From IMG/VR virus record IMGVR_UViG_3300033405_000009: DNA of 64,000 nucleotides. One strand, given 5' to 3'. The notes beneath the pieces are model-generated. The model had not been told where the DNA came from. It searched no databases and saw only the letters and a list, made by a program, of their open reading frames with translations. Origin of the DNA: a virus. Positions within the stretch are counted from its first letter, which is position 1. The number at the start of each line of letters is the position of its first letter. A program made the position numbers and the translations under genes. This document shows, piece after piece, positions 10,917 through 26,080 of the stretch.

Positions 10917-10918
10917 CA

Positions 10919-11456: not shown

Positions 11457-11473
11457 GCGGAAAACTACACTAG

Positions 11474-11815: not shown

Positions 11816-11817
11816 CA

Positions 11818-12473: not shown

Positions 12474-12480
12474 GAATTGG

Positions 12481-12551: not shown

Positions 12552-12555
12552 CAAG

Positions 12556-12626
12556 TGCCTCTAGGAGGAGTCGAACCTCCCACGTCCGGCTTCGAAGGCC
12601 AGCGTCTGCATTCCGTCAGTAGAGGC
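12556..12626 (-). tRNA. tRNA-Arg(UCG)
   Basis: acceptor gcctcta/tagaggc, T-arm ggagg-agtcgaa-cctcc, loop rc CTTCGAA. Confidence 0.6.
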
Positions 12627-12632
12627 ATTGGT

Positions 12633-12706
12633 TGCAGGCACGGGGAATTGAACCACCGCTGTCTCCGGGTTATGAGCCCGGCGTGGAGCCGTTTCACTCG
12701 CCTGCA
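12633..12706 (-). tRNA. tRNA (CAU anticodon) with mismatched T-stem
   Basis: acceptor tgcaggc/gcctgca, anticodon stem ccggg/cccgg perfect, loop rc CTCATAA, T-loop TTCAATT. Confidence 0.45.
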
Positions 12707-12707
12707 G

Positions 12708-12774
12708 TGCCTCCAGCAGGATTCGAACCTGCAAACCAACCTTCGGAGGGTCGGGTCTGTCCATCAGTGAAGGC
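12708..12774 (-). tRNA. tRNA-Arg(CCG)
   Basis: T-arm gcagg-attcgaa-cctgc, loop rc CTCCGAA; short D-arm. Confidence 0.45.
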
Positions 12775-12830
12775 GTTCATGGTAGAGTACGACTGGCTTT
12801 CCAGCCAACACACCACACACGGAGTCTATC

Positions 12831-13016
12831 ATGTCTGATTCGAAACCGTATGAAATCCGAGCTCAAATTCTTCATCTTGCTCAGGACATTCTCTCGGAGA
12901 ATGCCCATCTGAAATTGCAGAATTCTGGTCGCCGACCCGACGACGTTCCTTCCTATACGACGGAAGAGGTCCTCGCCGAGGCGGAGAAACTCTACGAGTT
13001 CGTCTCTAAACGATGA
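12831..13016 (+). CDS. hypothetical protein
   Basis: ORF 61 aa between tRNAs. Confidence 0.35.
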   Translation: MSDSKPYEIRAQILHLAQDILSENAHLKLQNSGRRPDDVPSYTTEEVLAEAEKLYEFVSKR

Positions 13017-13017
13017 T

Positions 13018-13093
13018 TGGTACCCCTAGAAGGACTTGAACCTTCAGCCTCCACGTTCGTAGCGTGTTGCACGATCCATCGTGCTGTAGGGGC
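13018..13093 (-). tRNA. tRNA-Arg(ACG)
   Basis: CCA encoded, T-arm gaagg-acttgaa-ccttc, loop rc CTACGAA. Confidence 0.55.
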
Positions 13094-13223
13094 ATAGGCC
13101 TCCAGGGAGTTGAAGACCGATAGCGAGCGCTCGCTATTGGTCTGAGGCTCCCGTTTCCACGCTTGCGTGGCGTCCTTCTGCTAGACGATGGAGATTGTAG
13201 GACTCCATCATGGAAGTCCCTAG

Positions 13224-13297
13224 CGTTCCCAGGGGGATTCGAACCCCCGTTTGCGCCGTGAGAGGGCGCCATCCTTGGCCAGCTAGATGATGGGAAC
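13224..13297 (-). tRNA. tRNA-Glu(CUC)
   Basis: acceptor gttccca/tgggaac, T-arm ggggg-attcgaa-ccccc, anticodon stem gcgcc/ggcgc. Confidence 0.55.
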
Positions 13298-13298
13298 A

Positions 13299-13727
13299 TT
13301 ACTTTCGAAAATGAGTGCGAATCTTGTGACAGTTGGCACAAACAACATCGCATTTCTGGATTTCTGCTCTGATCATTTCTAGTGCTTTGAGGCTATGAGC
13401 GGCAATTTCACTCACACAAGAAGTCTTCGTAGTTGGATCTCGATGATCAAATTCCATGATATACGAAGGAAAAACCCCTTTACAGTCATGGCACGGTTTG
13501 TTTTTTGCTTCTTCACGAAGCCTTGATGCTTCGATTCTTAAACTAGTATTTCTTTCTTTGACAGCAGATTTTTGCTGAGTTTTATTGGCCTCATACCAAA
13601 ATTCATTGTAGGTTCTTTTGCATGCACGACATCGACTCTGCCGTGTTCCTTTTGTCTTAGACTTCCAAGCAAAATCTGTATCTTTTTTCTTATTACCGCA
13701 TTTTAGGCAAACGCGCATTCTAAACAA
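13299..13727 (-). CDS. HNH homing endonuclease
   Basis: CHDCKG...HxxxR...CANCH zinc-binding HNH pattern; paralog of 17683-18114. Confidence 0.65.
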   Translation of the reverse strand: MFRMRVCLKCGNKKKDTDFAWKSKTKGTRQSRCRACKRTYNEFWYEANKTQQKSAVKERNTSLRIEASRLREEAKNKPCHDCKGVFPSYIMEFDHRDPTTKTSCVSEIAAHSLKALEMIRAEIQKCDVVCANCHKIRTHFRK

Positions 13728-13798
13728 ATGCTACATTAGAATCCTAGACGGCGTGAGAGGCCAGTGTCCTGGGCCGCTAGACGACGGGAACATCGTAG

Positions 13799-13869
13799 TG
13801 CTCGCACGGAGAATCGAACCCCGTTTAGCTGGCTGAGAACCAACTGTCCTACCAGTAGACGATGCGAGC
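13799..13869 (-). tRNA. tRNA (anticodon CUC-like)
   Basis: acceptor gctcgca/tgcgagc, T-arm cggag-aatcgaa-ccccg. Confidence 0.45.
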
Positions 13870-13927
13870 GTTAAACCAGTTTCAGGGCGGACTGGCAGCC
13901 GTTCCAAAACTCCCTTGCGAGAGTGCC

Positions 13928-14002
13928 TGGTGTCTCCGGGCAGAGTCGAACTGCCAATACGGAGGTTCGCGACCTCCAATCTATTGTTCCGATAGCAGAG
14001 AC
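13928..14002 (-). tRNA. tRNA-Arg(GCG)-like
   Basis: CCA encoded, T-arm ggcag-agtcgaa-ctgcc, anticodon stem ggagg/cctcc. Confidence 0.45.
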
Positions 14003-14191
14003 ATGAAGAGCGAGTGCTCTTATCCGCCGCAGAGACCGTTTTTAAGGCGGTATGCGACACGGTACCCCCAAGAGGTAACGATCCTCTCTTCTACGGTTTA
14101 GAAGACCGCGAACTGTCCATCAGTGGGGGCATGAAGGATTTGCATCCTTATCTTCCAACACGGCCCCGATTAGCGGTCGGGAATGTTGGAA

Positions 14192-14273
14192 TGGAGAGGT
14201 TGTCGTGAGTCGAACACGGACTTGTCGCCATCGGTTTTGCAGACCGAACCCAGATACCGTCTGGTACAACCTC
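14192..14273 (-). tRNA. tRNA-Cys(GCA)-like (long variable region)
   Basis: CCA encoded, acceptor gaggttg/caacctc, loop rc CTGCAAA. Confidence 0.45.
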
Positions 14274-14315
14274 ATAATCACACGTACGTTGCCGAGTTGA
14301 ACGGCTTCCGAACCA

Positions 14316-14340
14316 CGGCGAGGAGGGAATTGAACCCTCA
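14316..14340 (-). other. orphan tRNA T-arm fragment
   Basis: gaggg-aattgaa-ccctc with no acceptor partner. Confidence 0.3.
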
Positions 14341-14377
14341 CAGGGCGTCCCCTGCACGACCAATCACGCACGTGTGG

Positions 14378-14450
14378 AGCGGGTGACGAGAGTCGAACTC
14401 GCCTTGGACTCCTTGGGAAGGAGATGCCTCACCACGTCGGCTTCACCCGC
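14378..14450 (-). tRNA. tRNA-Gly(CCC)
   Basis: acceptor gcgggtg/cacccgc, loop rc TTCCCAA. Confidence 0.5.
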
Positions 14451-14451
14451 A

Positions 14452-15048
14452 TTACACTCTGAGAGCTGCTTCTACCGAAGAGAGATAAACTTGATGGTAA
14501 CGATGGTCTCCATATGGAAGACCAGCCCCTCCAACTAGCTGTCCATTTTGAGCCTTGAGACTCCAATCTTTCCCGTTCCGAATGGTGTGAAGAGCGGCCA
14601 TCGAGTCCATGTGATGGACCCAACGCAAAACAGCGTAGCCAAACGCTGGACTTCTCGAACCACCCATTTGACAATGGACGTAAATCGGACCGAGGCCGAT
14701 CATCATCTTCGCAAAACTAACTGCATGCCTTACGGTATCCACATTGAATGGAGTTCCGTCATCCGGCACGCGACACTCAGAAAGATTGGGAATGCCTTTC
14801 CCCTCGTCTGAATGTTCAGTTTCTACGTTCAGAACCGAACGAATCCCGAAATCTTTCGCCAAATGCTCCCAATCCGTTTGATCGCAAATTGAGCCCCCGA
14901 TCATGAGATCTGGTGTCACCCACCACCTTTGAACCGGGTGGTTCGGATCGGGAGCGTAAACGCGATTGGTGTAAACTTCGGCCATTCCCATGTGGGACTT
15001 TACTGGAGCAGGAAGGCGCGGATCGAACGCGCGTTTCTCTGGGGGCAC
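14452..15048 (-). CDS. dual-specificity / protein-tyrosine phosphatase-like
   Basis: active-site signature VHCQMGGSRS (HC-X5-R); true start probably at internal Met ~14985. Confidence 0.55.
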   Translation of the reverse strand: MPPEKRAFDPRLPAPVKSHMGMAEVYTNRVYAPDPNHPVQRWWVTPDLMIGGSICDQTDWEHLAKDFGIRSVLNVETEHSDEGKGIPNLSECRVPDDGTPFNVDTVRHAVSFAKMMIGLGPIYVHCQMGGSRSPAFGYAVLRWVHHMDSMAALHTIRNGKDWSLKAQNGQLVGGAGLPYGDHRYHQVYLSSVEAALRV

Positions 15049-15148
15049 CAGAGTGTTCTACCGTTGGTTTCGCCAGTCTACGGTCTCCGAAGTGGCCAGT
15101 TCCGTTCCTTTAGACTAGGTACACCTTATTGAACTACTCCTGCAGAAC

Positions 15149-15478
15149 TTACGATTCCATCACGTCTTCAACGATCTCTTGGATTTGTTCGTCGATAGAT
15201 CCGATGAAACCGAAGAAACTTGCCAGCTTTCTCATCATTACTCCATGGCAGGACGGAATGATCCAACCTGAATGAGACGCAGTTAGAGATGGAAGGATAG
15301 GTTCTTCCACTGGAGCTCTCGAACTACCACCTTTGGCTCCACAGAATAGGCAAATGAAGCGATCTTCAATTACTGGCTGACCTCTAATCAGCTTTGTTTT
15401 CTCCGGGTCCGTGGAATGGCTCCAAGTAGCACCTTTTACGGAATTTGAACTTGTCCACTGCCACTTGTGGTGGTCCAT
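15149..15478 (-). CDS. hypothetical protein (C-term EDVMES)
   Basis: ORF track 15149-15577; start trimmed to internal Met MDHHKW because N-terminus overlaps tRNA-Gly. Confidence 0.4.
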   Translation of the reverse strand: MDHHKWQWTSSNSVKGATWSHSTDPEKTKLIRGQPVIEDRFICLFCGAKGGSSRAPVEEPILPSLTASHSGWIIPSCHGVMMRKLASFFGFIGSIDEQIQEIVEDVMES

Positions 15479-15552
15479 TGGAGCGGGTGAGGGGAATCGA
15501 ACCCCCTCCCTCTCGTTGGCAACGAGAAGCTCGACCTTCGAGCTACACCCGC
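15479..15552 (-). tRNA. tRNA-Gly(GCC)
   Basis: CCA encoded, acceptor gcgggtg/cacccgc, anticodon stem tctcg/cgaga loop rc TTGCCAA. Confidence 0.55.
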
Positions 15553-15586
15553 AAACTTCTATCGAACTTACAAACAAGAGGTAGTT

Positions 15587-16072
15587 ATGTCGGAAGAGAA
15601 CATGTCGGAAGAGAACAGCTCAGAACTTGTTGTGGAATCTTCAGATTCAACTCCACCTTCGAAGAAACCCAGCAAGATGCGTGACCTTGCTACACTCATC
15701 AGCGCCGTGACGGCCATGATTGTAGCCATTGGGTCCTACTTCAGACCGCAAGATCACACGGTTACGCAAAAATCCTACGAGACTTGCGTTGATGGGATTG
15801 CTAAGATCCAAGACGCCGAGCAAAAGAACCATGACGACATCGCGAACCTCCGCGGATTCGTCGAGGGTTATACTCACGGGCACGTTCCATTTGCGGAACC
15901 TTCATTCGAGGGAAAATCTAGCTCCTCTTCCCCGACTACTAGCCCGACTACTAGCCCCTCAACTTCCACGATGAAGACTGTAGACGTTCTCTTGGATGCG
16001 AATGAACCTCCGGCTCAACATCCGAAGCCGGCCCCCTGGAATCCCCCGCCTTTCTCTGCTATTGTGAAGTAG
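15587..16072 (+). CDS. hypothetical membrane-anchored, Ser/Thr/Pro-rich protein
   Basis: hydrophobic segment LISAVTAMIVAIGSYF; C-terminal S/T/P low complexity. Confidence 0.5.
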   Translation: MSEENMSEENSSELVVESSDSTPPSKKPSKMRDLATLISAVTAMIVAIGSYFRPQDHTVTQKSYETCVDGIAKIQDAEQKNHDDIANLRGFVEGYTHGHVPFAEPSFEGKSSSSSPTTSPTTSPSTSTMKTVDVLLDANEPPAQHPKPAPWNPPPFSAIVK

Positions 16073-16155
16073 CTGAAAGCTAAATCGGCTTAGTATTTCA
16101 CTTGAGCGGCCAGTGGGTATCGAGCCCACATCTTCAGGTTGGAAACCTGAGGCGT

Positions 16156-16596
16156 TCAAACTTGAACGGTCGCAATCAGCCTGCGTTTGGCAGTCACACG
16201 TCTATGACAGTTAGCACAACGGATTTCGCATTTGGCGATTTCTTTCTCGATTTTCCAAATCCTAAAACCACAACCAACCATTCTTGATATGTCACAAATC
16301 TTATCACCTTTTACGTGATCAAAGTCTAAAACTACGGGGTCATTCTCACCGCAATCCACACATGCTCGTTCAGATAAAACTTTTTGAACGTAATCCTTAG
16401 CTTGTTGGATCGCCCTATTGCGGATGGGCTTCATTCGATCGTAAACTGAAATTGGATTATTTTGATTTCGCAACCGAATTCGCTCTCTTACGCATGATTT
16501 GCAATCAGGTCTTAGTTTCCCATCCATTTTTGCAGGATGCAAGAAACTAAATTCCGCTTCAGCTAATACTTTTTGGCATTTTGTACATTTCTTCAT
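16156..16596 (-). CDS. HNH homing endonuclease
   Basis: CVDCGEND...DHVKGDK...CANCH. Confidence 0.65.
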   Translation of the reverse strand: MKKCTKCQKVLAEAEFSFLHPAKMDGKLRPDCKSCVRERIRLRNQNNPISVYDRMKPIRNRAIQQAKDYVQKVLSERACVDCGENDPVVLDFDHVKGDKICDISRMVGCGFRIWKIEKEIAKCEIRCANCHRRVTAKRRLIATVQV

Positions 16597-16602
16597 GTTG
16601 GA

Positions 16603-16628
16603 ACGTTACCAATTGGTAACGTTCCAAC
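16603..16628. promoter_or_regulatory. perfect 26-nt palindrome GGAACGTTACCAATTGGTAACGTTCC
   Basis: seen directly; sits immediately upstream of HNH gene start and downstream of tRNA-Gly. Confidence 0.4.
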
Positions 16629-16697
16629 AGAGCGGATGGCGGGCATCGAACCCGCACGGCACGGCTTGGAAGGCCGGCTGACTGCCAAAGTCGCATC
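16628..16697 (-). tRNA. tRNA-Gly(UCC)
   Basis: acceptor gcggatg/catccgc, T-arm gcggg-catcgaa-cccgc, loop rc CTTCCAA. Confidence 0.55.
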
Positions 16698-16725
16698 CGC
16701 GTTCCCCACACCATACTTGGTGACT

Positions 16726-16800
16726 GGGTGGAGCCGTCAAGGGGGATCGAACCCCAGCCCTTCTCTATACCAAAGAGATGCTCCGCCTTGGAGCTATGAC
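16726..16800 (-). tRNA. tRNA-Thr(GGU)
   Basis: CCA encoded, acceptor gccgtca/tgacggc, anticodon stem tctct/agaga. Confidence 0.6.
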
Positions 16801-16820
16801 GGCAAGTTGTACTATGTTGA

Positions 16821-17069
16821 ATGAGCCATGTCTGCACTCTCTACGAGTATGAAGGCCGTTTTCACGTTAGTGGAGTCTGTCTTTGTGGCCTCGGTGCAAC
16901 CATGTCTTGGGCGACCAAGGGTACCGATGGCAGCTTCGAGCCCCGATGCGGAAAATGTCGACGGGCAGATGCTCGATACGATCGATCTAATAACAGCAAT
17001 CCCGCATATCACGAGATTGACCGTGAGATCTTCGAGTATCTTTGCGTGCAAGAAGTGATGGAATCTTGA
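16821..17069 (+). CDS. hypothetical zinc-ribbon-like protein (C-term QEVMES)
   Basis: ORF 82 aa, CLCG...CGKC. Confidence 0.45.
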   Translation: MSHVCTLYEYEGRFHVSGVCLCGLGATMSWATKGTDGSFEPRCGKCRRADARYDRSNNSNPAYHEIDREIFEYLCVQEVMES

Positions 17070-17335
17070 GTGCCACAGGCGGGAGTCGAACCCGCCACTC
17101 CAGGGTAAAGAACTCTCGCAAACGCGCTTCCCTACTCCGGCAGTTTACGGCCAGGTCTGCGTTTGTTACCAAACGCAGCGGAGTCCGGTGCTTCCGCAAC
17201 TCAAGAGTCCACCCAATCTCGTGCAGTGTTCAGCTGAACCTCGCCCAGAAGATCTTGCACGAGACCAGTCCAAGAAGCCTCTTCTCGAGGTCATCATTTC
17301 CGTTTAACGATGGCCGTCCCGGCGGCCCGCTGTGG
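17070..17335 (-). ncRNA. ~266-nt element closed by tRNA-like acceptor stem and canonical T-arm (intron-containing tRNA or other tRNA-like ncRNA)
   Basis: T-arm gcggg-agtcgaa-cccgc at 17078-17094; acceptor gccacag pairs with ctgtggc at 17329-17335; internal GGCC/GGCC D-like stem and 9-bp hairpin 17156-17177. Confidence 0.35.
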
Positions 17336-17459
17336 CATTCGTGGAGTTTACGGAACTCGAATCCGTATCTGCGCCTTTTCTGACGCTGCTCTACCTTCAC
17401 ATTTGAACCCGGGCCCAGACTCAAACGTGCGACTTTCGCCTTGAGCTAAAACCCCGCAG

Positions 17460-17530
17460 CTGAGGAGGAAGGAATCGAACCTTCATAGCGAGTGCCAAAA
17501 GCTCGCGTCCTGCCGTTAGACGACTCCTCA
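17460..17530 (-). tRNA. tRNA (anticodon UUG or UUU; loop register ambiguous)
   Basis: acceptor tgaggag/ctcctca, perfect T-arm gaagg-aatcgaa-ccttc. Confidence 0.45.
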
Positions 17531-17619
17531 ATGGAGGACTGTCAGGCAACAATGTCAACACTCCCGTGTTGAGTACTCCCGCCTTCGAATCACCTTTCTA
17601 CGTGACTCTGACAATCCAG

Positions 17620-17692
17620 TGGAGTTGACCGGGAACGATCCGGCAACCTCGAGCTTGCAAAGCTCGCGCTCTCCCGATTGAGCTACAACCCC
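17620..17692 (-). tRNA. tRNA-Ala(UGC), non-canonical T-loop
   Basis: RNA reads GGGGTTG-TAGCTCAATCGGGAGAGC-CGAGC TTTGCAA GCTCG; T-loop ATCGTTC. Confidence 0.55.
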
Positions 17693-18114
17693 GTTTTGGT
17701 CATTTGTCGATGGTACGTTCTATCTGCATGACAATTAGCGCAAACTACCTCACATTTTTGGATTTCTGCCAAAACCACTTCTTCAGAATGTTTCCATATT
17801 TCATTAATGGTGCCCATTTTGACTGTTCCAGGCAAGTGGTCAAATTGCATACGCCAGTACGGGTGAATTAGTCTACAGTCGGCACAAGGTTTATTCTTGG
17901 CTTCTCGGACCATTTCTTTTAATTTTTGTTCTCGGGTTTTAGAGTGTTCTCTACTCTGAGAAATATGTTTTCTACGATTAGAAGGATTAGAATACCATTC
18001 TGACCAATATATCTTTTGGCAATCACGACAGACGCTGCTATATCCTGCTTTCTTTTTATTGAAAGAATCCGTAGATTTTGTCTCTCCGCATTTAGAACAA
18101 AATTTCTTCTCCAT
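17683..18114 (-). CDS. HNH homing endonuclease
   Basis: CADCRLIHPYWRMQFDH...CANCH; paralog of 13299-13727. Confidence 0.65.
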   Translation of the reverse strand: MEKKFCSKCGETKSTDSFNKKKAGYSSVCRDCQKIYWSEWYSNPSNRRKHISQSREHSKTREQKLKEMVREAKNKPCADCRLIHPYWRMQFDHLPGTVKMGTINEIWKHSEEVVLAEIQKCEVVCANCHADRTYHRQMTKTGL

Positions 18115-18211
18115 GTCTAGATTTGCAATGGATTTATTATTGCAAATCTAGACACAAGCCTTGCAAAGGCCTGATCCTGCCATTAGACTTATGGCCCCAA
18201 TGTGAACTTTG

Positions 18212-18282
18212 CTGGGGTGTAGGGACTCGAACCCCAATAGGCGGCTCCAGAGACCGCCGTCCTGCCATTAGACGACACCCCA
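18212..18282 (-). tRNA. tRNA-Gln(CUG)
   Basis: acceptor tggggtg/cacccca, anticodon stem gcggt/gccgc loop rc CTCTGGA. Confidence 0.55.
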
Positions 18283-18374
18283 AAGCGAGTGTAGCCCCGT
18301 CGCTTGAGCTACATTCAGCCCAGCTGCTCGAAGTAATCCTCAGGAGCGACCCCGAGGTTCCTCGTCAGCTGTAG

Positions 18375-18448
18375 TGGACCCAGACGGTGACGATCCGTCT
18401 ACCTCCGCGCTGCCAGCGCGGCGCTCTCCCAACGTGAGCTATGGGCCC
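18375..18448 (-). tRNA. tRNA-Ala(GGC), non-canonical T-loop
   Basis: RNA reads GGGCCCA-TA-GCTCACGTTGGGAGAGC-G-CCGCG CTGGCAG CGCGG; T-arm GACGG ATCGTCA CCGTC. Confidence 0.55.
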
Positions 18449-18449
18449 T

Positions 18450-18598
18450 TGGCACTGCGCTAGGAATCGAACCTAGTATCTAAGCGTCCACGATCTTCTT
18501 CTCAGCACCACCCATTCGTACGGCGCCGTACGAGATGAGCAGAAAACTCCGAGCCTCCAATCGCGACCTTCAAAGGAGTGGCACCAGCCACCGCATTG
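18450..18598 (-). ncRNA. structured region ending in tRNA-like T-arm/acceptor/CCA without a clean 5' acceptor partner
   Basis: 3' end ctagg-aatcgaa-cctag + cactgcg + TGG; 16-nt perfect palindrome CGTACGGCGCCGTACG at 18517-18532. Confidence 0.3.
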
Positions 18599-18669
18599 TG
18601 GACCGCCGGGGAATCGAACCCCGATCCCTCCCGTGCGAGGGGAGTGTACGCCCGTTGTACTAGCAGCCC
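18599..18669 (-). tRNA. tRNA-Ala(CGC)
   Basis: acceptor GGGCTGC/GCGGTCC with G-U pairs, D-stem GTAC/GTAC, anticodon stem CTCCC/GGGAG loop CTCGCAC, T-arm CGGGG TTCGATT CCCCG. Confidence 0.55.
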
Positions 18670-19185
18670 GTTTCGAATAAGTGGAGTAGATGTGTAAGCC
18701 GGGTTCTGTCGAGGACGATCATTCATCTAGGCTCGGCATTGCTGACGAGCTCAAGCAGCACACCCGAGAGCATCGGTCGGGCAAACCGCTCTCTGTTGGC
18801 CTTGCTCCAGGTGAGGTTTAGCGCAGTTTACATCACTGCAAACTGGGCAGGGTCTTACTCCTGCCTTTGCACCCTTACCACGGTCGAAACCGTGGCGGTT
18901 TTCTTTCTGTTCCACTTTCTGTCGGATCACTCCGCCTGGTCGTTAACCAGCACCCTGCCCTGTGGAGCCCGGACTTTCCTCTCGCCTTTCGGCCAGCGAT
19001 CGTCTCATCTACTCCGAAGATTGGTGGTACTCACTTGATTCTGCAGAATCTTTACACCCTCAAGAGGCCGTTACGGGAATCCTCCTTTTGGTGAAGGGCG
19101 ACAAGTGATCATGATCGAACGGATCTCTCCGCCCGCGCCATTTCCTTGCTGAGTACCGTCCCTAAGCAGTTTCGAACCTGCTCGG

Positions 19186-19253
19186 CACGCCCGGAAGGAA
19201 TCGAACCCTCATCCGGAGTTTTGGAGGCTCCGTTGGCACCTTGCCTCGGACGT
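19186..19253 (-). tRNA. tRNA-Trp(CCA)-like
   Basis: T-arm gaagg-aatcgaa-ccctc, loop rc CTCCAAA. Confidence 0.4.
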
Positions 19254-19319
19254 ATGGTGAGATGGGAATGATGAACGAGGGACCTAGAAATCAGGTCGTC
19301 ATTCCCATTCACATCTCAG

Positions 19320-19391
19320 CGCCCACGAAGGGAGTCGAACCCTCCTCACTGGCGTGACAAGCCAGCCGCCTCACCGGATGCGTACGCGGGC
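19320..19391 (-). tRNA. tRNA-Asp(GUC) copy 1
   Basis: anticodon stem ctggc/gccag loop rc TTGTCAC; paralog of 21175-21246. Confidence 0.55.
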
Positions 19392-19873
19392 AGTTTTCTA
19401 GTGCCGTAAGTCGATGTTTGTGAATGACAGTTTGGACAAAGAAATCGGAGATTGTCTTTGTCATTATTGGACCAATCTCCGTCTCTATGATCGATTGGGA
19501 GTGTTAATGGTTTGCCATTCCATTTCGGGCCTTGACCACAAGCTTCGCACTTATGCTCTACTCCGCTTTCTAAGAGAGCTCTTCTCAATTGAACGGTGGG
19601 TAGTCTTCTCTTACTAGTCGGAGTGAAGATTTGTGACGGAGCTTTTCTTTTAGTTGAAAATTTTCCTGTGAACCCTCTCCTGAAATGAGAGGTGTTCAAT
19701 TCATACTCTTCAATCCTTCGCCGGATGAGGCTACTGGTGCTTCCGGAATATGATTTGAATCCGAGTCGAGTTAGGACTTCTGCAAGAGAGAAACTTTCTC
19801 TTACAACTCTTTGTAGTACCTCTCGCGTGTATTTCACACGGTCATCATACAAGCGTCGTGAGCCAGCCGTCAA
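19346..19873 (-). CDS. HNH homing endonuclease
   Basis: CEACGQGPKWNGKPLTLPIDHRDGD...NLRFLCPNCH. Confidence 0.6.
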   Translation of the reverse strand: MTAGSRRLYDDRVKYTREVLQRVVRESFSLAEVLTRLGFKSYSGSTSSLIRRRIEEYELNTSHFRRGFTGKFSTKRKAPSQIFTPTSKRRLPTVQLRRALLESGVEHKCEACGQGPKWNGKPLTLPIDHRDGDWSNNDKDNLRFLCPNCHSQTSTYGTRKLPAYASGEAAGLSRQ

Positions 19874-19926
19874 GCGCCGTCACCAGCTGGCTCACGAGAC
19901 ACTGGGAGGCTTGCGCCTCCCAGTGT

Positions 19927-21123
19927 TCACTCGACGCTGACGATGACGCCCGCGCCGACAGTCTTGCTACCCTCACGAACAGCGAACCTCATTCCAGGCT
20001 CGAGTCCGATCGGAACCATCAACTCCAGCGAGACCTGTGCGTGATCTCCAGGGTTGATCATCTTGTTTTCGCCGAAACTCGTCACCGTTCCGGTGACGTC
20101 AGTCGTGCCGAAGAAGAATTGAGGTCTGTATCCCGGGAAGATCGGCGTGTGCCGACCACCCTCTTCTTTCGGAATCACGAATAGCTCCGCGAGAGCTTTT
20201 GCGTGAGGTTGTACGGAGCCGGGAGCGATGAGCACCTGACCACGAACTACCTCATCACGAGCCACTCCTCTGAGGAGAAGCCCACAGTTTTCGCCCGCGC
20301 GAGCCTCCACTTGATCCTTGTGGAACATCTGGATGCTCGTGACCACGACTTGACGAGGCTTGGAGTCTGCCTCTATCAATCCGACAATCTCGACGGGGGA
20401 CCCAGCCTTGAGGACACCACGCTCGATGCGACCCGTGACGACAGTGCCGCGACCAGGGATCGTGTGTACGCCTTCAATGGGCATCATGAACGGCGCGTCG
20501 TAATCTCGCTTCGGATCGGGAAAATGCTGGTCCATTGCGGCAACCAGCTCTGTGATGCAAGCCCCATCCACCGCGGGATTTCGGAGCGCCTTGAGCGCCG
20601 ATCCCTTGACCACCGGACAGTCTTTGTAGCCGTGCAGCTCCAAACGCTCGATCGTCTCCATGACGACAAGATCCAGAAGCTCAGGATCGGAGATGTCCAC
20701 TTTGTTGATGAACACTACGATTCTCTGAACCCCGACCTGACGAGCAAGCAGAATGTGCTCTTTCGTCTGATACTGAGGTCCTTGGCTACCGTCCACCAAG
20801 AGCACGGCCCCGTCCATTTGGGCGGCGCCAGTGATCATGTTCTTGATGTAGTCCGCGTGTCCAGGACAGTCGATATGCGCATAATGCCTAGTAGCACTCT
20901 CGTATTCGACATGGGACACGTTGATGGTCACCGTCTTCGACTCGTCTCGGACCGTGCCGCCCTTGGCGATATCCGCGTAGCTCTTGATCTTCGCGAGCTT
21001 CGCATGCGCTTGTACGGCCAGAAGAGCCGCCGTCAGCGTAGTCTTGCCATGGTCGACGTGTCCGATAGTCCCAACATTCACGTGCTGCTTCGTCACTGTG
21101 CCTTCGCCTCGGGTTGCCAGCCC
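19927..21123 (-). CDS. tuf: translation elongation factor Tu (bacterial type)
   Basis: [15 protein letters not shown]-loop, [12 protein letters not shown] motifs; ORF-track N-terminal extension to 21204 overlaps tRNA-Asp so start is probably non-ATG near 21123. Confidence 0.8.
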
Positions 21124-21174
21124 TTCTTCTCCTTGTAGTGCCCCGTCAGAAGTGTTCTGACTCCAGGGGCTCAG

Positions 21175-21246
21175 CGCTCTCGACCGGAATCGAACCGGCC
21201 TCATCGGCGTGACAAGCCGACTGCCTCACCAGATGCATACGAAAGC
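21175..21246 (-). tRNA. tRNA-Asp(GUC) copy 2
   Basis: T-arm accgg-aatcgaa-ccggc, anticodon arm near-identical to copy 1. Confidence 0.5.
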
Positions 21247-21334
21247 ATGCAGACTAACGTTCTGATCAGACTTACTTCGATGGGCAGGCCGGAAGATCCT
21301 ATAACTGAGATCCTCTGGCCGACCCATCAAAAAC

Positions 21335-21419
21335 TGGTACCCCCGGCAGGAATCGAACCTGCGATGACTTTCGTCTCCGGTTTAGGAAACCGGCGCCTTA
21401 TCCACTAGACTACGGGGGC
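21335..21419 (-). tRNA. tRNA-Arg(CCU)-like with 14-nt variable region
   Basis: CCA encoded, T-arm gcagg-aatcgaa-cctgc, anticodon stem ccggt/accgg loop rc TTCCTAA. Confidence 0.45.
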
Positions 21420-21423
21420 GTAA

Positions 21424-21744
21424 CTAACTTTGCAAAAGAGAAGCGATCACGAAATGGTCCCAAAAGTCTTTCTTTTTTAAGAATTTGAATCCGTCCAATC
21501 GAACGAGTTCATGAATTATGATGGTTTCTCGATACCCTTCTTCTGGAGTCCCAGGGTCGTATCCTGTTAGCTTTGATGTGAAATCACATTGCCCGCAGTG
21601 GACAAAGATCAAGTGTTCCTTTTTCCAATAATCGAAAAAGAGCTCCGGAGGTTGAGGAAGATCTATTACGGGAGTGTGTTTCTTTATTCTGTGCGCGATG
21701 AGTTCCGCGATCCAATCGTTAAACTGTTCGAGTTTCAACTGCAC
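21424..21744 (-). CDS. hypothetical protein
   Basis: ORF 106 aa. Confidence 0.45.
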   Translation of the reverse strand: MQLKLEQFNDWIAELIAHRIKKHTPVIDLPQPPELFFDYWKKEHLIFVHCGQCDFTSKLTGYDPGTPEEGYRETIIIHELVRLDGFKFLKKKDFWDHFVIASLLQS

Positions 21745-22046
21745 ATAACTACATACACCAAGAAGAGCTTGTGATAATCTTCGATACCTGTCCCATATGC
21801 ATGGTCTTTTGAGGTAACGAATTGCTCTATGAATTTCGGGTTCTTGAAGAGTTCGGCGGTTGTTTTATCAACTTTATCCAGGTCCAGATGGAGATTCCAT
21901 TTGCAACTATCACAAGTTGCATGGAGCAAACCGACTCCGTAAGTGGAGTTGATACGAACTTTCGGAATCTTGCCTCCTGGATGGACTACTCGAGTTCGAT
22001 GAGAAACGGCCATTCGCAGCCATTCACTAACCGGATCGATCTCCAC
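21735..22046 (-). CDS. hypothetical protein
   Basis: ORF 103 aa. Confidence 0.45.
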   Translation of the reverse strand: MEIDPVSEWLRMAVSHRTRVVHPGGKIPKVRINSTYGVGLLHATCDSCKWNLHLDLDKVDKTTAELFKNPKFIEQFVTSKDHAYGTGIEDYHKLFLVYVVMCS

Positions 22047-22061
22047 TCAAGACTTTACGGA

Positions 22062-22085
22062 GTGACGTACGGGAGTTGAACCCGC
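22062..22085 (-). other. orphan tRNA T-arm fragment
   Basis: acggg-agttgaa-cccgc without acceptor partner. Confidence 0.25.
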
Positions 22086-22137
22086 CTTCGCTGATTCACA
22101 GTCAGCCCCATTCCCACGACTGGCAACGCCACCATAA

Positions 22138-22743
22138 TCACTGCGAACTAAGAGATTTGCAACAACGAAAGCCGGTTTCGTAGAACCGGAAAGAAGGATG
22201 GTGCGCGTCGTTTGACTGACCGCACGAAGTTTTCTTCGCCCAAAATCCGCCTTTGAGCGTGTATGGATGATCTCGACCGTCACGGGAGACCACCCATTCT
22301 TCAACGCTTCCGAGGAGATCGTAAACCCCATCAGGGTTTTTGCATTGCGGCCAAGACCCAGAAGGCTGTCCTTGCCAAATGCGTCGAACTTCTCGTTTTG
22401 TTGCGTCTTTTGAAGCACTTGGAAAGAAAGCTTCTTCTTTCCATTCGAGCCACCGTCTGATGTTGAGACATGGACCTTGAGTAGGCTCACAAGCCGCGTC
22501 CCACTCATCTTCAGTGCATAGTCTCTTTTCTCGAGCCTCACACCATTTTTTCCCATCCATTGCGGATTGCATCACCATCGGATTCAGACCCTCAACGTTC
22601 GGGGCCTCGAATCTGTCCATGCAAACTCCGTGAGTCAACACCATGTCCTGAGGACAAACTGGTGAGAATTCCAGGAGAAGGAATGTGATGTAGATGAAGA
22701 CCGTCATTGTACGCATCCTACAGTGCGTCGACATGTCTGGCAA
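22138..22743 (-). CDS. secreted FGE/SUMF1-like (formylglycine-generating enzyme family) protein
   Basis: N-terminal hydrophobic signal-like segment; C-terminal ...RFYETGFRCCKS resembling FGE-sulfatase domain end. Confidence 0.4.
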   Translation of the reverse strand: MPDMSTHCRMRTMTVFIYITFLLLEFSPVCPQDMVLTHGVCMDRFEAPNVEGLNPMVMQSAMDGKKWCEAREKRLCTEDEWDAACEPTQGPCLNIRRWLEWKEEAFFPSASKDATKREVRRIWQGQPSGSWPQCKNPDGVYDLLGSVEEWVVSRDGRDHPYTLKGGFWAKKTSCGQSNDAHHPSFRFYETGFRCCKSLSSQ

Positions 22744-22938
22744 GCGGATGAAGAAGTCGAACAGACTTCATTCGGTGTGATCAAGGTGTTCGAATGCGCG
22801 GAATGTCGGAGTCGCGTTCACTTGAATGCTGTCGCCCATAAGAAGGACGATAGTGAACCGAACGAATTCGACTTGGATTTTTACGACGTTCCTTACGACT
22901 GCGAAGAGGCAATCGTAAAATTCATCATGGAAAATTAG
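22723..22938 (+). CDS. hypothetical protein (C-term KFIMEN)
   Basis: ORF 71 aa. Confidence 0.35.
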   Translation: MRRHVWQADEEVEQTSFGVIKVFECAECRSRVHLNAVAHKKDDSEPNEFDLDFYDVPYDCEEAIVKFIMEN

Positions 22939-23012
22939 TCGGGGCGACTGGAATCGAACCAGCGATCTCAAGCACCCAAAGCTCGCGCACTACCAAACTG
23001 TGCTACGCCCCG
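22939..23012 (-). tRNA. tRNA-Pro(UGG)
   Basis: acceptor cggggcg/cgccccg, loop rc TTTGGGT. Confidence 0.55.
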
Positions 23013-23105
23013 AAAATTTTGATCACGCCCGAGTGTGAAAGCCGGTGACTTGTGTCAGCTTTTCTGGCTGTTGCCTTTACCATTTGGCTACTCCCCCGTA
23101 AAAGT

Positions 23106-23165
23106 GGAGGAGGTTGGATTCGAACCAACAATTGCGTGTAGGCTTACAAGGGTGGGCGCGATCAG
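23106..23165 (-). other. tRNA-like 3' element (T-arm gttgg-attcgaa-ccaac) lacking 5' acceptor partner; paralog at 23566-23634
   Basis: two similar copies each followed by an intact tRNA. Confidence 0.3.
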
Positions 23166-23240
23166 TGAGTCCTCTCGGAATCGAACCGAGTTCTTCTGCT
23201 CTTCAGGCAGACGCTGAATCACCAGACTAGCTCAGGACTC
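23166..23240 (-). tRNA. tRNA-Phe(GAA)
   Basis: acceptor gagtcct/aggactc, perfect T-arm ctcgg-aatcgaa-ccgag, loop rc CTGAAGA. Confidence 0.6.
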
Positions 23241-23565
23241 GTTACAACTGCATGAGACGAAGTGCTGCTTCTGCGGCCTCACGTGAAGTGCAGAGAGCGT
23301 AAAACTGAAGAAGACCACCATAAGCGTTGAAAGTCGGGAGATGTTCCTTCCTCTCGGCCTTTCGGTCGGTCTCGGCTACTCCGAATTTCCAACCAGAAAA
23401 GGAAGGACTGACGATTTGATCGAAAGGCGAGTGAACGACTTCCTGAACATTCACGACTTGCAGCATGATGGCTCCAAAAGGTTAGATAGCGCCCGAGTGA
23501 GAAAGCAGTTGCTTTTGCTAGCTTGGATGGCTAGTGTCCTGACCTCTAGACGACTCGGCCATATT

Positions 23566-23634
23566 GGAGGCCGAGGTTGGATTCGAACCAACGTTACTTA
23601 TGCTTGTGTGCTTTGCTCGAGTGGGCGTTATCGG
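23566..23634 (-). other. tRNA-like 3' element, paralog of 23106-23165
   Basis: acceptor-like ggccgag pairs upstream (ctcggcc 23555-23561) forming hairpin rather than acceptor. Confidence 0.3.
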
Positions 23635-23706
23635 TGACCCCAGCGAGAATCGAACTCGCATAAGCAGATTGAAAATCTGCGATCCTAACCTTTAGACGAT
23701 GGGGCC
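23635..23706 (-). tRNA. tRNA-Glu(UUC)
   Basis: perfect T-arm gcgag-aatcgaa-ctcgc, anticodon stem gcaga/tctgc loop rc TTTTCAA. Confidence 0.55.
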
Positions 23707-23794
23707 GTTTGCCTTTACACGCTGATGCGCCAACGTTAAAGGCTGCTTACGTTGAACGGCGGGCCGCGCATGGGAGGTCGCTCGTTCGGAGATT

Positions 23795-23926
23795 GGGGGA
23801 CTTCCGGAGTCGAACCGGATGCTTGTGGGGATTGCTGGATGGCCCCTTTCAGGGCCGAGGTGCAATACCTAACTGCCTTGCGGCCTAGAGTGTGAGTCTA
23901 GTTGGGCGCCGTGCCCAAAAGTCCCC
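23795..23926 (-). ncRNA. long tRNA-like RNA A (~132 nt): tRNA frame with ~60-nt insert between anticodon-like arm and T-arm
   Basis: acceptor ggggact/agtcccc, T-arm tccgg-agtcgaa-ccgga; insert has GCAA-tetraloop hairpin and second hairpin with compensatory changes across copies. Confidence 0.5.
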
Positions 23927-24027
23927 GTAACTTTTCCTTTACTCTTTCGAGTCAGCCACTTATGGGCAGCTGATCGAAATTTACGCTTGGCTTGACGCCT
24001 CGCGGCCATGTTTCGCATGGAATTCAT

Positions 24028-24170
24028 TGGAGAGGGATCTTGGAGTCGAACCAAGTATGCTTGTGGGTACTACTGAGTGGCTCCGTGAGGAGCCGAGTTG
24101 TAATACCGGAACGCCTTGCGGCGCCAGTTTTACTGACTGGTAGGCGGCCGTCGCCCATATCCCTCATGTG
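24028..24170 (-). ncRNA. long tRNA-like RNA B
   Basis: acceptor gagggat/atccctc, T-arm cttgg-agtcgaa-ccaag, conserved gcttgtggg...ccgag...gccttgcggc blocks. Confidence 0.5.
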
Positions 24171-24210
24171 TTTTGTGAAAGTTTAAGGCAGCCGAGTTGT
24201 AGTGCTGTTT

Positions 24211-24285
24211 TTGGTGCAAAAGGTCGGATTTGAACCGACCAGTGTTTCCGTTCCGGGGAAATGCTCCACCTAGGAGCATCTTTTG
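24211..24285 (-). tRNA. tRNA (anticodon loop CCGGAAC, identity uncertain)
   Basis: CCA encoded, acceptor gcaaaag/cttttgc, perfect T-arm gtcgg-atttgaa-ccgac. Confidence 0.45.
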
Positions 24286-24317
24286 CGTGTTAGCACTACG
24301 GGTTGGCTGCCTTGGCG

Positions 24318-24462
24318 GGGATCCCTGGATTCGAACCAGGATTGCTTGTGGGAACCGCTTGGTGGTCCCTTTCAGGACCGAGTTGCGATGCCGGACTGTC
24401 TTGCGACACAGTTTAACCAACTGTTGAGCTGCCATTGCTCAAGATCCCCAAAATTGTGGCAC
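24318..24462 (-). ncRNA. long tRNA-like RNA C
   Basis: T-arm ccctggattcgaaccagg; acceptor ggggatc/gatcccc; same conserved insert. Confidence 0.45.
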
Positions 24463-24490
24463 CCGAGTTGTGATGCTGATTTTTGCAAGA

Positions 24491-24562
24491 GCGAGTTTCG
24501 AATTCGCCCCTTCGGTTTAGCAGACCGACGTTCCACCTAGGAACATCTTGCGTGTAAGCATC
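24491..24562 (-). tRNA. tRNA (anticodon GCU-like, type I length)
   Basis: T-arm gcgag-tttcgaa-ttcgc, anticodon stem tcggt/accga. Confidence 0.4.
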
Positions 24563-24580
24563 ACTGATTGGGTGCCTCAG

Positions 24581-24651
24581 AGCCGCCGAGTGGAGTCGAA
24601 CCACCCTCACCGCATTACGAAAGCGGGGTTCTCCCAGAGAACTACGACGGC
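24581..24651 (-). tRNA. tRNA-Thr(CGU)
   Basis: T-arm agtgg-agtcgaa-ccacc, loop rc TTCGTAA. Confidence 0.45.
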
Positions 24652-24767
24652 GTGAAGTGCTCCATTACACTCACCATGGCACTCCCTATGAGTTAGGTGA
24701 CTATAACGGTTGGGTTGCACTTACCCGATTAAGGCGGCCTGATTCGAAGTCAGAACCTTAACCACGG

Positions 24768-24904
24768 TCGAGGAGCCAGGAGTCGAACCTGGATTTTTGC
24801 TTGTAGGAACTGCTGGTTGGCTCTTTTCAGAGCCGAGTGGCAATGCCGGCTGCGCCTTTCGGCTAGCTCCCTTTGCTAGTGGGGGACCGACCCCCTATCT
24901 CCTC
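24768..24904 (-). ncRNA. long tRNA-like RNA D
   Basis: acceptor cgaggag/ctcctcg, T-arm ccagg-agtcgaa-cctgg, conserved insert. Confidence 0.5.
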
Positions 24905-25055
24905 GTTCTATCGATCTCTACATTCGACGAGTTCCAGTTTACGGAACTCATCAGCGTCTCAGGTAGGTAACGATCCTACTTTCTCTCGCTTAACAGGCGA
25001 GTGCTATTCCATATTAGCTTCTGAGACAATGAACTTTTGTTAACAAGTTCTTGTT

Positions 25056-25496
25056 ATGAGAACTTGTAAGAAGTGTGGAAACTCTATTCCTCGGTACACC
25101 GAGGTGGACGGTAAACAAGTTTCGCTCACTAACAGGACCCTGTGTTTGGGGTGCAGTTCGCTTAAAAAGCCACGTTCTTTTCCAAACTTAAAACGTCAAA
25201 AGAATATGATACTCGTTACCGCTTATCGTCAGAAAACGAAACAGAAGGCTGTAGAAACTAAAGGAGGTAAGTGCGAAATCTGTGGATATGACCGTTGCAT
25301 TTCTGCACTTATCTTCCACCATCGCGACCCATCTACCAAGTCTTTCTCCATCAATGATGGTAGAACTCGAAGGTGGGAGATAGTTGAAAACGAGATCGTT
25401 AAATGCGCACTCCTTTGTCACAATTGCCATTCCGAAGTCCACGCGGGACTTATTCAGCTCCAGGGGAAGGACTCGAACCTCCAGCCTCTTGGTTAA
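25056..25496 (+). CDS. HNH homing endonuclease
   Basis: CEICGYDRC...FHHRDP...CHNCH. Confidence 0.65.
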   Translation: MRTCKKCGNSIPRYTEVDGKQVSLTNRTLCLGCSSLKKPRSFPNLKRQKNMILVTAYRQKTKQKAVETKGGKCEICGYDRCISALIFHHRDPSTKSFSINDGRTRRWEIVENEIVKCALLCHNCHSEVHAGLIQLQGKDSNLQPLG

Positions 25497-25531
25497 CAGC
25501 CAAGCCATGGTACCCATACCAAAACCCTGGA
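25458..25531 (-). tRNA. tRNA-Asn(GUU)
   Basis: acceptor tccaggg/ccctgga, anticodon stem cttgg/ccaag loop rc CTGTTAA; overlaps 3' end of HNH ORF. Confidence 0.55.
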
Positions 25532-25677
25532 ACGAAAGTGGAACTCCGTGATCCGTACCACGGAGTTCCCTCGCGCGAAGGCTTTTCGGTGACTTCCAGC
25601 CACACTACTGCGCCCTCTCTATCGCTCTGCGTAGATTGTCAGAGAACTGGACCCTTCACGTTTGAGGGGCCGTTCGG

Positions 25678-25744
25678 CTGAGACGGAAGGATTCGAACCT
25701 TCTTCGACGGAATCAGAAACCGTCTTATCACCTTGAGCATCTCA
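25678..25744 (-). tRNA. short tRNA, anticodon ambiguous
   Basis: perfect T-arm gaagg-attcgaa-ccttc, acceptor 6/7. Confidence 0.35.
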
Positions 25745-25757
25745 ATGTTTGTCTTCG

Positions 25758-25829
25758 TGAGCCCTGAAGGAATCGAACCTTCTACACGCGGCTTAAGAGA
25801 CCGCTGTTCTACCAGTGAACTAAGGGCCC
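25758..25829 (-). tRNA. tRNA-Lys(CUU)
   Basis: T-arm gaagg-aatcgaa-ccttc, loop rc CTCTTAA. Confidence 0.55.
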
Positions 25830-25860
25830 GCTTTTGTTTTGAGGCTGGGGTTTGCCTCAG

Positions 25861-25932
25861 TGAGCCCTGAAGGAATCGAACCTTCTGCGCGCGGCTTAAA
25901 AGACCACCGTTCTACCAGTGAACTAAGGGCCC
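25861..25932 (-). tRNA. tRNA-Lys(UUU)
   Basis: paralog of 25758-25829, loop rc CTTTTAA. Confidence 0.55.
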
Positions 25933-25992
25933 CCTTTCTTTGTTTTTGGCCCCTGTTTGAGGGGCTTGGTCTTGCGTTTCATCTGTGACTCC

Positions 25993-26080
25993 AGTGTGGG
26001 CGATAGGATTCGAACCTACTCAGGCTTATTGGCGTTGCGGGCGGGTTACAGCCGCTTGAGCTCTCCAGGGCTCAGCACCC
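25993..26080 (-). tRNA. tRNA-Tyr(GUA), type II
   Basis: T-loop attcgaa, D-arm gagc-cctggaga-gctc, loop rc CTGTAAC. Confidence 0.5.

Follow-up and report, generated by a model that had tools for sequence, protein, structure and literature searches.

Candidate Y-RNA-like tRNA mimics of three topologies in a huge-phage tRNA array and their linkage in related phages to a vWA, ubiquitin-like, and E1 operon

In YrlA RNAs, which mimic tRNAs, the order of the tRNA parts is permuted and the molecule is closed by a stem, an internal loop, and a further stem that bind Ro60; their variable region starts with YUAY, and the gene lies within about 4 kb of that for Ro60 on the same strand (PMC4201824; PMC12135203). 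The Ro60-binding motif is GNCGAA(N0-1)G / CGAA on the 5' strand of the stem (PMC4201824; PMC12135203). YrlA-type mimics from phages are already known as well; phage phiLo encodes a Ro60-Yrl pair (PMC12135203). Here we describe eight tRNA-like elements from the IMG/VR virus record IMGVR_UViG_3300033405_000009, analyzed as one stretch of 64,000 nucleotides (nt; herein the window), which comes from a huge phage. Like YrlA (RF02553), these elements combine a stem / internal loop / stem with a tRNA-mimicking domain that comprises a T arm, an acceptor-like stem, and a D arm, and the linker before the T arm has a YUAY-like start (CUAC or CCAC here). We take them to be non-coding RNAs that mimic tRNAs in the manner of Y RNAs (YrlA), and not standard decoding tRNAs, with an arm that would dock a vWA protein encoded in a linked operon; on the comparative evidence, we give this reading a probability of roughly one half.

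Four of the elements (e1 through e4; Table 1) have the normal tRNA order. They are 132 to 138 nt long, lie on the minus strand, and fold in RNAfold as cloverleaves with a 7-base pair (bp) acceptor stem, a D-like stem of 5 to 6 bp with GG in a small loop, an anticodon-like stem of 5 bp, and a short hairpin with a GNRA loop. They share with canonical tRNAs the 7-bp acceptor stem, the T arm (GGUUCRAnYC), the D loop with GG, and a discriminator followed by C74 or CCA. None is called by the tRNA finders (ARAGORN and Rfam tRNA, RF00005); as a set they lack the 7-nt loop with U33 (U33 is found in e1 only) and a variable region of 4 to 5 nt or one simple arm. Instead, an insert of 55 to 65 nt lies between the anticodon-like arm and the T arm, running from the 5' strand of a helix, hB, through NNCUC, the hA hairpin (6 bp, mostly with a GAAA loop), and ANCNA to the 3' strand of hB; a single-stranded YACAAGCA linker then leads to the T arm. 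The original prediction, made from the letters of the window, had placed four such elements at the right sites, but its e2 and e3 are too long by 5 to 13 nt at the 5' side; the strand is minus. It described loops without U33, as is the case for e2 through e4 but not for e1 (CUCACAC). The GGTATTGCA block that it singled out is present but is the 5' strand of hB, and the GCC-GCAA-GGC hairpin that it considered conserved is not found in relatives, being absent, for example, from two copies in L017, a locus on a 436-kb contig that is syntenic with the window.

All eight elements have one module in common. It consists of hA, a symmetric 5x5 internal loop in which CUC(G) is invariant, hB (8 bp), and an unpaired YACAAGC linker. 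R1, a covariance model spanning the arm, linker, and T arm, scores 88 to 94 bits on e1 through e4 (E about 1e-21) and finds homologs in unrelated contigs, which bears out that the four are real. Loci were first fetched by a permissive pattern scan, and filtering with R1 was needed since the majority of the 120 were chance matches. The homologs lie in huge-phage contigs of 100 to 620 kb, and also in short contigs of metagenome-assembled genomes whose bins are assigned to Myxococcota, Proteobacteria, Gemmatimonadota, and others; these contigs are probably mis-binned phage. Extension of the R1 matches gave at least 137 distinct elements (of 141) with at least six of seven acceptor pairs and a median length of 133 nt; their most conserved letters are the CUC(G) before hA, the YACAAGC (ACAAGC) after hB, and the T loop. 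Among 35 distinct homologs, pairing holds in 93.9% of cells, and 17 of 18 pairs are changed on both sides, figures that lean toward the structure, since the alignment was fitted to the model. None of 500 shuffles equals this level, and slid controls pair at 33 to 58%. The covariance-model search proposed with the original prediction has thus yielded a family whose structure holds when aligned, and the covariation, together with the degenerate anticodon loops, supports its view of a selected RNA structure that is tRNA-like but not an ordinary decoding tRNA.

The motif ACA[A/C]GCA occurs at eight minus-strand sites between 23.1 and 24.8 kb, compared with four in the other 62 kb of the window. 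The four sites additional to those of e1 through e4 mark the same module, open instead of capped (X1, X2, P1, and P2), which the original prediction had missed, along with the two further topologies and the YrlA/Y-RNA resemblance. In X1 and X2, a leader and a trailer pair as hA, 5x5 loop, and hB around a complete tRNA-like gene, and a YACACGCA linker leads into the acceptor stem. The arm of X1 reads AAGGCAGCC / 5x5 loop with CAACUC / UAGUGCU, then AACACGCA; that of X2 reads GGCACCC / AAUCA versus AACUC / GUGAUGCU, then UACACGCA. Although it is called tRNA-Ser, X1 has neither a long arm nor U33. P1 and P2 are circularly permuted. P2 runs from one arm strand through CACAAGCA, the T arm, the acceptor 3' strand, a U-CCA-AUAU cap, the acceptor 5' strand, the D arm, and an anticodon-like arm (CAUCCAA) to the other arm strand, and its ends pair via hA, the loop, and hB in RNAfold. 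The X and P architectures are recovered in RNAfold minimum free energy structures (z -4.6 to -7.5), and hA is 7 to 10 bp long where it joins two RNA ends (X and P) compared with 6 bp where it is capped (e).

It is the P type that matches the plan of YrlA, with a T arm, a capped acceptor, a D arm, and a long stem of the 5' and 3' ends with an internal loop; P1, P2, and the P-type copies of L017 and of L009, a locus on a 497-kb contig, all follow it. This permuted plan is found neither in e1 through e4, with their normal tRNA order, nor in X1 and X2. L017 carries five e-type, one X-type, and one P-type element at the same array position, with compensatory changes in hA, including in the ortholog of P1 (4290-4450 of L017). 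In L009, elements of the types e, X, e, X, P, and P follow in this order directly after the operon described below, which indicates that the three topologies are a conserved set.

Clustering of the open reading frames (ORFs) of RNA-bearing loci revealed a cassette that adjoins the RNAs in at least 15 loci. It encodes a helical-repeat protein of ~630 amino acids (aa) with a C-terminal vWA/MIDAS domain, a ~320-aa protein that matches no family, a JAB/JAMM peptidase, a ubiquitin-like protein of ~90 aa, and a ThiF/E1 protein. The ubiquitin-like protein ends in RPKTPFG plus zero to two residues, as is typical of a ubiquitin-like precursor, and the ~320-aa protein may be an E2- or E3-like component. 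In 59 IMG/VR loci fetched through the vWA protein, almost all from contigs >100 kb, the vWA gene (59 loci) is accompanied by those for the ~320-aa protein (55), JAB (52), the ubiquitin-like protein (50), and ThiF (43). R1 matches lie within 6 kb in 40 of the 59, and all 108 matches are on the operon strand, just 3' of the ThiF gene or <2 kb upstream of the vWA gene. As with YrlA, the RNA genes lie beside, and on the same strand as, a gene for a helical-repeat and vWA protein, with several paralogous RNAs per locus. In 13 control loci (252 kb) fetched through a major vault protein (MVP)-like protein of the window, R1 found no match and no RNA lies within 10 kb. Because they adjoin a conserved operon in related phages, the RNAs are probably the RNA parts of an undescribed RNA-protein system and not ordinary decoding tRNAs.

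The closest relative of the window, the 436-kb contig of L017, carries the operon and, with it, an e-type RNA at a distance of 230 kb from the tRNA array (loci L237 and L052). Among GenBank phages, the vWA protein is found only in Virus Rctr197k (KX853510.1; 5070-10932), directly after a 36-tRNA array; its gene is annotated as a misc_feature and possibly disrupted, and the R1 matches there are partial (linker and T arm; 19484-19586, after the ThiF gene). In loci L215 through L273 (for example, 7844-10875 of L215), the RPKTPFG C terminus is invariant, the JAMM motif reads HSHPGSG...PS..D, and the ThiF/E1 protein is short. The operon resembles bacterial ubiquitin-like conjugation cassettes, but it is phage-borne.

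The vWA protein belongs to a family with at least 1,801 members, all unnamed. AlphaFold models predict a small N-terminal β domain, a helical region of ~300 residues, and a vWA domain, with a mean predicted local distance difference test score (pLDDT) of 78.9 for the full length and 72.9 for residues 1 through 415. The architecture is thus Ro60-like in the models; homology to Ro60 itself is unproven. The TROVE Pfam model matches none of 30 family members, neither Foldseek nor a PDB profile search with the vWA protein returned anything significant, and alignment of the family with one Ro60 by hhalign superposes the MIDAS motif only. PDB sequence searches with the ~320-aa and ubiquitin-like proteins gave no match, and PHROGs and NCBIfam supply no family names for the cassette except ThiF-type matches. 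Mycobacteriophage Bxz1 gp220 (Ro60) finds nothing by tblastn in the window, the loci, or LR756500, LR756501, and LR756503; next to the Bxz1 gp220 gene, Rfam YrlA has no match at threshold. Compared with Ro60, then, the candidate partner has no TROVE domain detectable by sequence, an extra N-terminal β domain, and ubiquitin-like, E1, and JAB genes alongside.

How far the tRNA-like body has departed from a tRNA can be judged from the set of 137. Between the acceptor stem and the module, two hairpins are present in 83 elements, three in 39, and only the D arm in 13, which indicates that the anticodon-like arm is dispensable. The anticodon-like loop is 7 nt long in 69 of the 124 elements that have the arm; in these 69, C32 (50), A37 (51), and A38 (51) are common, and U33, which has an established role in ribosomal decoding, is present in only 36. 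The loops also differ between orthologs (UGGUUAA in e3, UGUGAAA in L017). Such loops are either degenerate or carry changes that would be expected to hinder decoding on the ribosome. GUA (16) is the commonest triplet, ahead of UCC (8), CAU (7), and GUU (6), and the discriminator fits the tRNA identity of the triplet in 31 of 55 cases versus 18.4 expected (P = 5e-5, relatedness ignored), with A in 12/16 for GUA, U in 7/8 for UCC, and G in 4/6 for GUU. In nearly every element the base after the discriminator is C, and 32 of the 137 encode CCA. These identity-matched discriminators and the C74 or CCA indicate that the RNAs descend from real tRNAs of several identities and have kept acceptor-end features. 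Among the 16 Tyr-like (GUA) copies, U33 is present in one; the loop CGGUAAA occurs eight times, and among these copies it is conserved over 13 different acceptor stems. One locus (L046) holds a canonical tRNA-Tyr together with a GUA element.

A single L-shaped body would, in our model, present the same module in three ways: as a capped internal hairpin (e), as a leader-trailer duplex (X), or as a duplex joining permuted ends (P). The module would be the docking site for a phage protein, for which the ~630-aa helical-repeat and vWA/MIDAS protein is the candidate. The tRNA elbow, the acceptor end, and, in many copies, an anticodon-like loop with a matching discriminator might let tRNA enzymes still handle the RNA, among them RNase P (whose RNA the array encodes) and the CCA-adding enzyme, possibly also aminoacyl-tRNA synthetases or nucleases of the host that target tRNA. 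The RNA could in this way tether the vWA protein to tRNA-recognizing factors, as Y RNAs tether Ro60, and its biological role would probably be the protection or control of tRNA function during infection. A more elaborate version, which we consider quite improbable, is that huge phages run an RNA-protein pathway in which aminoacylatable mimics in three circular permutations, bound by a Ro60-like vWA protein, are coupled to the ubiquitin-like/E1/JAB set. The E1-activated ubiquitin-like protein, which ends in Gly, might then be moved onto, for example, the charged 3' end of the mimic, or alternatively onto host tRNA-targeting defense proteins that the mimic recruits.

Several observations weigh against a Y-RNA-like role. 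The module lacks the YrlA motif GNCGAA(N)G / CGAA; its 5' strands read ..GCC-A-N-C-N-A-G.., and the conserved CUC(G) is on the other (3') strand, in addition to YACAAGC. Rfam YrlA scores fall far below the gathering score of 69 (24 bits for P1; 28.1 and 22.8 bits for the P-type copies of L009), the model aligning locally to the T arm, capped acceptor, and D arm of the P type (with UA in L009); e1 through e4 give no match to it at E<=5. The operon genes were not found in the 64-kb window, and their presence in this phage is inferred from the relative. The retained identity elements, the very uniform CGGUAAA of the Tyr-like copies, and an array that has no canonical tRNA-Tyr or tRNA-Trp among its 44 ARAGORN tRNAs (e2, with CAGUAAA and A33, provides its only Tyr-like anticodon loop) mean that some copies could be working tRNAs.

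The main rival, unlikely in our judgment, is that these are interrupted or permuted tRNA genes, the module being an intron-like processing element that an endonuclease would cut on both strands of the 5x5 loop before RtcB joins the ends. The arm would be removed from the e type, the P type circularized before RNase P opens the acceptor cap, and the tRNAs of the X type released, in a bacterial-virus analog of archaeal bulge-helix-bulge (BHB) processing. The original prediction had raised a noncanonical intron with RtcB; it is possible to the extent that RtcB is encoded in the window, 12 kb away. The archaeal BHB motif is known from three settings (inserts, leader-trailer duplexes, and the ends of permuted genes), and the element here occurs in all three. 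P2 encodes U-CCA just before its cap, and the obedience of the anticodon-like and discriminator bases to tRNA identity rules, like the missing tRNA-Tyr and tRNA-Trp, also favors this reading. The loop, however, is 5x5 and not the BHB 3-4-3 (3-nt bulge, 4-bp helix, 3-nt bulge), no EndA-like splicing endonuclease was found in the window or the linked cassette, and RtcB is outside the conserved neighborhood of the RNA-linked loci (as is EF-Tu). The invariant YACAAGC is outside the hairpin and would stay after excision, and half of the loops are not 7 nt or have no U33. Introns are also disfavored in that excision could not yield a tRNA from the 13 of 137 elements without an anticodon arm, that the same arm also occurs outside the tRNA body, and that the RNAs are linked to a protein operon of another kind instead of an endonuclease. 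If this rival were true, a bacterial virus would for the first time be seen to have protein-spliced or permuted tRNA genes.

Rather unlikely, too, is that the elements are working tRNAs whose variable arm is giant, and that they are charged and serve on the ribosome; the arm and the altered position 33 would then resist host anticodon nucleases or mark the tRNA for a phage factor such as the EF-Tu of the array. Phage tRNAs whose anticodon-loop changes evade nucleases are known, a phage EF-Tu is encoded in the array here and in L017, and the identity-consistent discriminators, the C74 or CCA, the CGGUAAA kept across 13 acceptor stems, and a window without another tRNA-Tyr all fit. Against this, 15 of 16 Tyr-like copies lack U33, as do half of the 7-nt loops overall. 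Of 124 loops, 55 have some length other than 7 nt, 13 elements have no anticodon-like arm at all, loops differ between orthologs, P-type copies would be two-piece or capped molecules, and in L046 the GUA element stands beside a canonical tRNA-Tyr. A very improbable decoy role, in which the anticodon-like stem-loops imitate those of host tRNAs for Tyr, Gly, Asn, Met, and other amino acids and soak up tRNA-cleaving defense nucleases, bound but uncut owing to the changed position 33 and with an arm that only stabilizes the RNA, would suit loops that are close copies of real anticodon loops except at that position and the many copies per genome, but it leaves the invariant CUCG and YACAAGC, the linkage to the vWA/ubiquitin-like/E1 operon, and the elements without an anticodon arm unexplained. 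Both the working-tRNA and the decoy readings could overlap with the Y-RNA-like model.

The eight elements occupy the upstream end of the minus-strand array of 44 tRNAs, at 5.9 to 26 kb. BLASTN of this region against GenBank phages found the neighboring tRNA-Pro only, and an Rfam scan at E<=5 returned tRNA, weak YrlA, and chance matches only, with no ribozyme or riboswitch family. The class-A RNase P RNA inside the array suggests that the phage may supply its own ribozyme for tRNA 5' processing. EF-Tu has an 88% identical copy in L017 and a weaker relative in L103 and is shared with these two only. The RtcB gene, which bears on the intron or repair alternative, and a DNA ligase gene lie 12 to 24 kb from the array. 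The 852-aa ORF with MVP domains is matched only by LR756500, LR756501, and LR756503 ("uncultured phage," 462 to 735 kb; 42 to 43% identity) and has homologs in 13 IMG/VR huge-phage contigs. Among the small paralogous ORFs between the tRNA genes, one bears a CHNCH...H HNH-like motif. Relatives occur in L017 and L142; these ORFs and the HNH endonuclease are probably homing-type nucleases that populate the array.

Table 1. Positions of the tRNA-like elements and of other features of the window
Feature	Position	Strand	Description	RNAfold	R1 match
e1	23795..23926	-	Acceptor GGGGACU/AGUCCCC; discriminator C; loop CUCACAC (U33 present); arm within variable region	-57.9 kcal/mol, z -4.8	23803-23870, 88.5 bits
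e2	24028..24165	-	Acceptor GAGGGAU; loop CAGUAAA (Tyr-like GUA, A33); 3' end U-CCA	z -5.7	24039-24108, 89.4 bits
e3	24313..24449	-	Acceptor GGGGAUC; loop UGGUUAA (Asn-like GUU); discriminator G; CCA encoded (ends GCCA)	z -3.9	24324-24393, 94.3 bits
e4	24768..24905	-	Acceptor CGAGGAG/CUCCUCG; discriminator A	Cloverleaf and arm in centroid	24776-24848, 88.2 bits
X1	24185..24313	-	Complete tRNA-like gene 24212-24286 ("Ser gga," loop CCGGAAC, ends ACCA); called as tRNA by both ARAGORN and Rfam	-54.5 kcal/mol, z -7.5	
X2	24458..24576	-	tRNA-like gene 24483-24552; loop CUGCUAA; Rfam tRNA 39 bits	z -5.8	
P1	23021..23163	-	Circularly permuted tRNA-like gene; acceptor GGGGGAG/CUCCUCC capped by ACUUUUAC; loop CAGAAAA	z -4.6	
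P2	23485..23632	-	Circularly permuted tRNA-like gene	-50 kcal/mol, z -5.8	23576-23624, partial
tRNA array	5895..26000	-	44 ARAGORN tRNAs		
HNH endonuclease	7897..8415	-	In array; Pfam-confirmed		
Small paralogous ORFs	13299..13727, 16156..16596, 17683..18114	-	Between tRNA genes		
Small paralogous ORF	25056..25496	+	Between tRNA genes		
Weak or partial domain matches	14452..15048, 22138..22743, 40120..40971	-	In or near array; dual-specificity phosphatase (below Pfam cut-off), FGE-sulfatase-like, inosine-uridine nucleoside hydrolase		
Permuted "tmRNA*"	18057..18690	-	ARAGORN call, very likely false; covers tRNAs Gln, Ala, and Ala and overlaps RNase P RNA start by 12 nt		
RNase P RNA	18679..19015	-	Bacterial class A, full-length; inside array; 287.6 bits		
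EF-Tu homolog	19927..21204	-	Complete (three domains); inside array		
Hairpin region	23241..23484	-	245 nt between P2 and tRNA-Phe; GC-rich hairpins such as GGCCGAGAGGAAGG...; no tRNA, ORF, or Rfam match		
852-aa ORF	30674..33232	+	Major vault protein domains: Vault_3 8e-10, MVP_shoulder 1e-29		
RtcB RNA ligase	36487..37725	-	Pfam 1.6e-123; 12 kb from array		
DNA ligase	47741..48982	-	ATP-dependent		

Apart from YrlA, four described systems invite comparison. The original prediction had likened the elements to species 1 and 2 of T4 (rnaC and rnaD), which are also stable-RNA-sized genes (119 to 139 nt) in a phage tRNA cluster, rnaC having a T arm and a terminal stem. The likeness did not survive: with filters off, R1 finds only the T arm of rnaC (15.2 bits) and nothing in rnaD, the folds are unrelated (that of rnaD is not significant, z -0.8), and neither has the CUCG or YACAAGC arm. 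The interrupted, split, and permuted tRNA genes of archaea and Cyanidioschyzon merolae likewise use one element as an insert, as joined permuted ends, and as a leader-trailer duplex, with RtcB in the genome; here, by contrast, the host of the element is a bacterial virus, the symmetric 5x5 loop has conserved sequence and is not 3-4-3, and some copies have no anticodon arm. Class II tRNAs, tRNA-Sec, and allo-tRNAs share the extra helix between the anticodon and T stems and a D stem extended to 5 to 6 bp, and the commonest triplet here, Tyr GUA, belongs to a bacterial class II tRNA. Unlike in class II tRNAs, the arm here is 45 to 60 nt long with an internal loop and invariant letters, U33 is often absent, and the arm also occurs in copies whose loops resemble those of Gly, Asn, and Met tRNAs, which belong to class I.

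Burroughs and Aravind reportedly proposed in 2016 a "novel tRNA-like molecule" as a cofactor of SPFH/Band-7 scaffolds in RtcB repair systems. As far as its description goes, the window shares with that setting RtcB and, in its MVP-like protein, a shoulder domain of the SPFH type; unlike the scaffold link described there, the RNAs here are unlinked to the MVP-like gene, with no match in its 13 homologous loci. In the literature searched, in which that molecule figures by description only, the CUCG / YACAAGC arm consensus appears undescribed. The same appears true of the un-permuted, acceptor-open form with tRNA identity marks, of three coexisting permutations, and of the link to a vWA/ubiquitin-like/E1/JAB operon in huge phages.

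If the Y-RNA-like reading is true, it adds a large phage-borne branch to the world of Y RNAs and tRNA mimics, one with a free acceptor end and tRNA identity marks, and the three circular permutations would be a natural demonstration that only the three-dimensional arrangement matters. It would also supply a candidate RNA partner for a widespread, uncharacterized huge-phage operon whose combination of vWA, ubiquitin-like, E1, and JAB proteins is currently studied in bacterial immunity. Counts of tRNAs in huge phages miss a class of tRNA-derived genes, and some calls mislead, as for X1.

Set against YrlA, the family is distinguished by its commonest form. The un-permuted e type is not described for YrlA; most copies here have this order, with an open acceptor end that carries C74 or CCA and with a capped module. 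Unlike YrlA, most copies also keep an anticodon-like arm, and the module is at the position of the variable arm.

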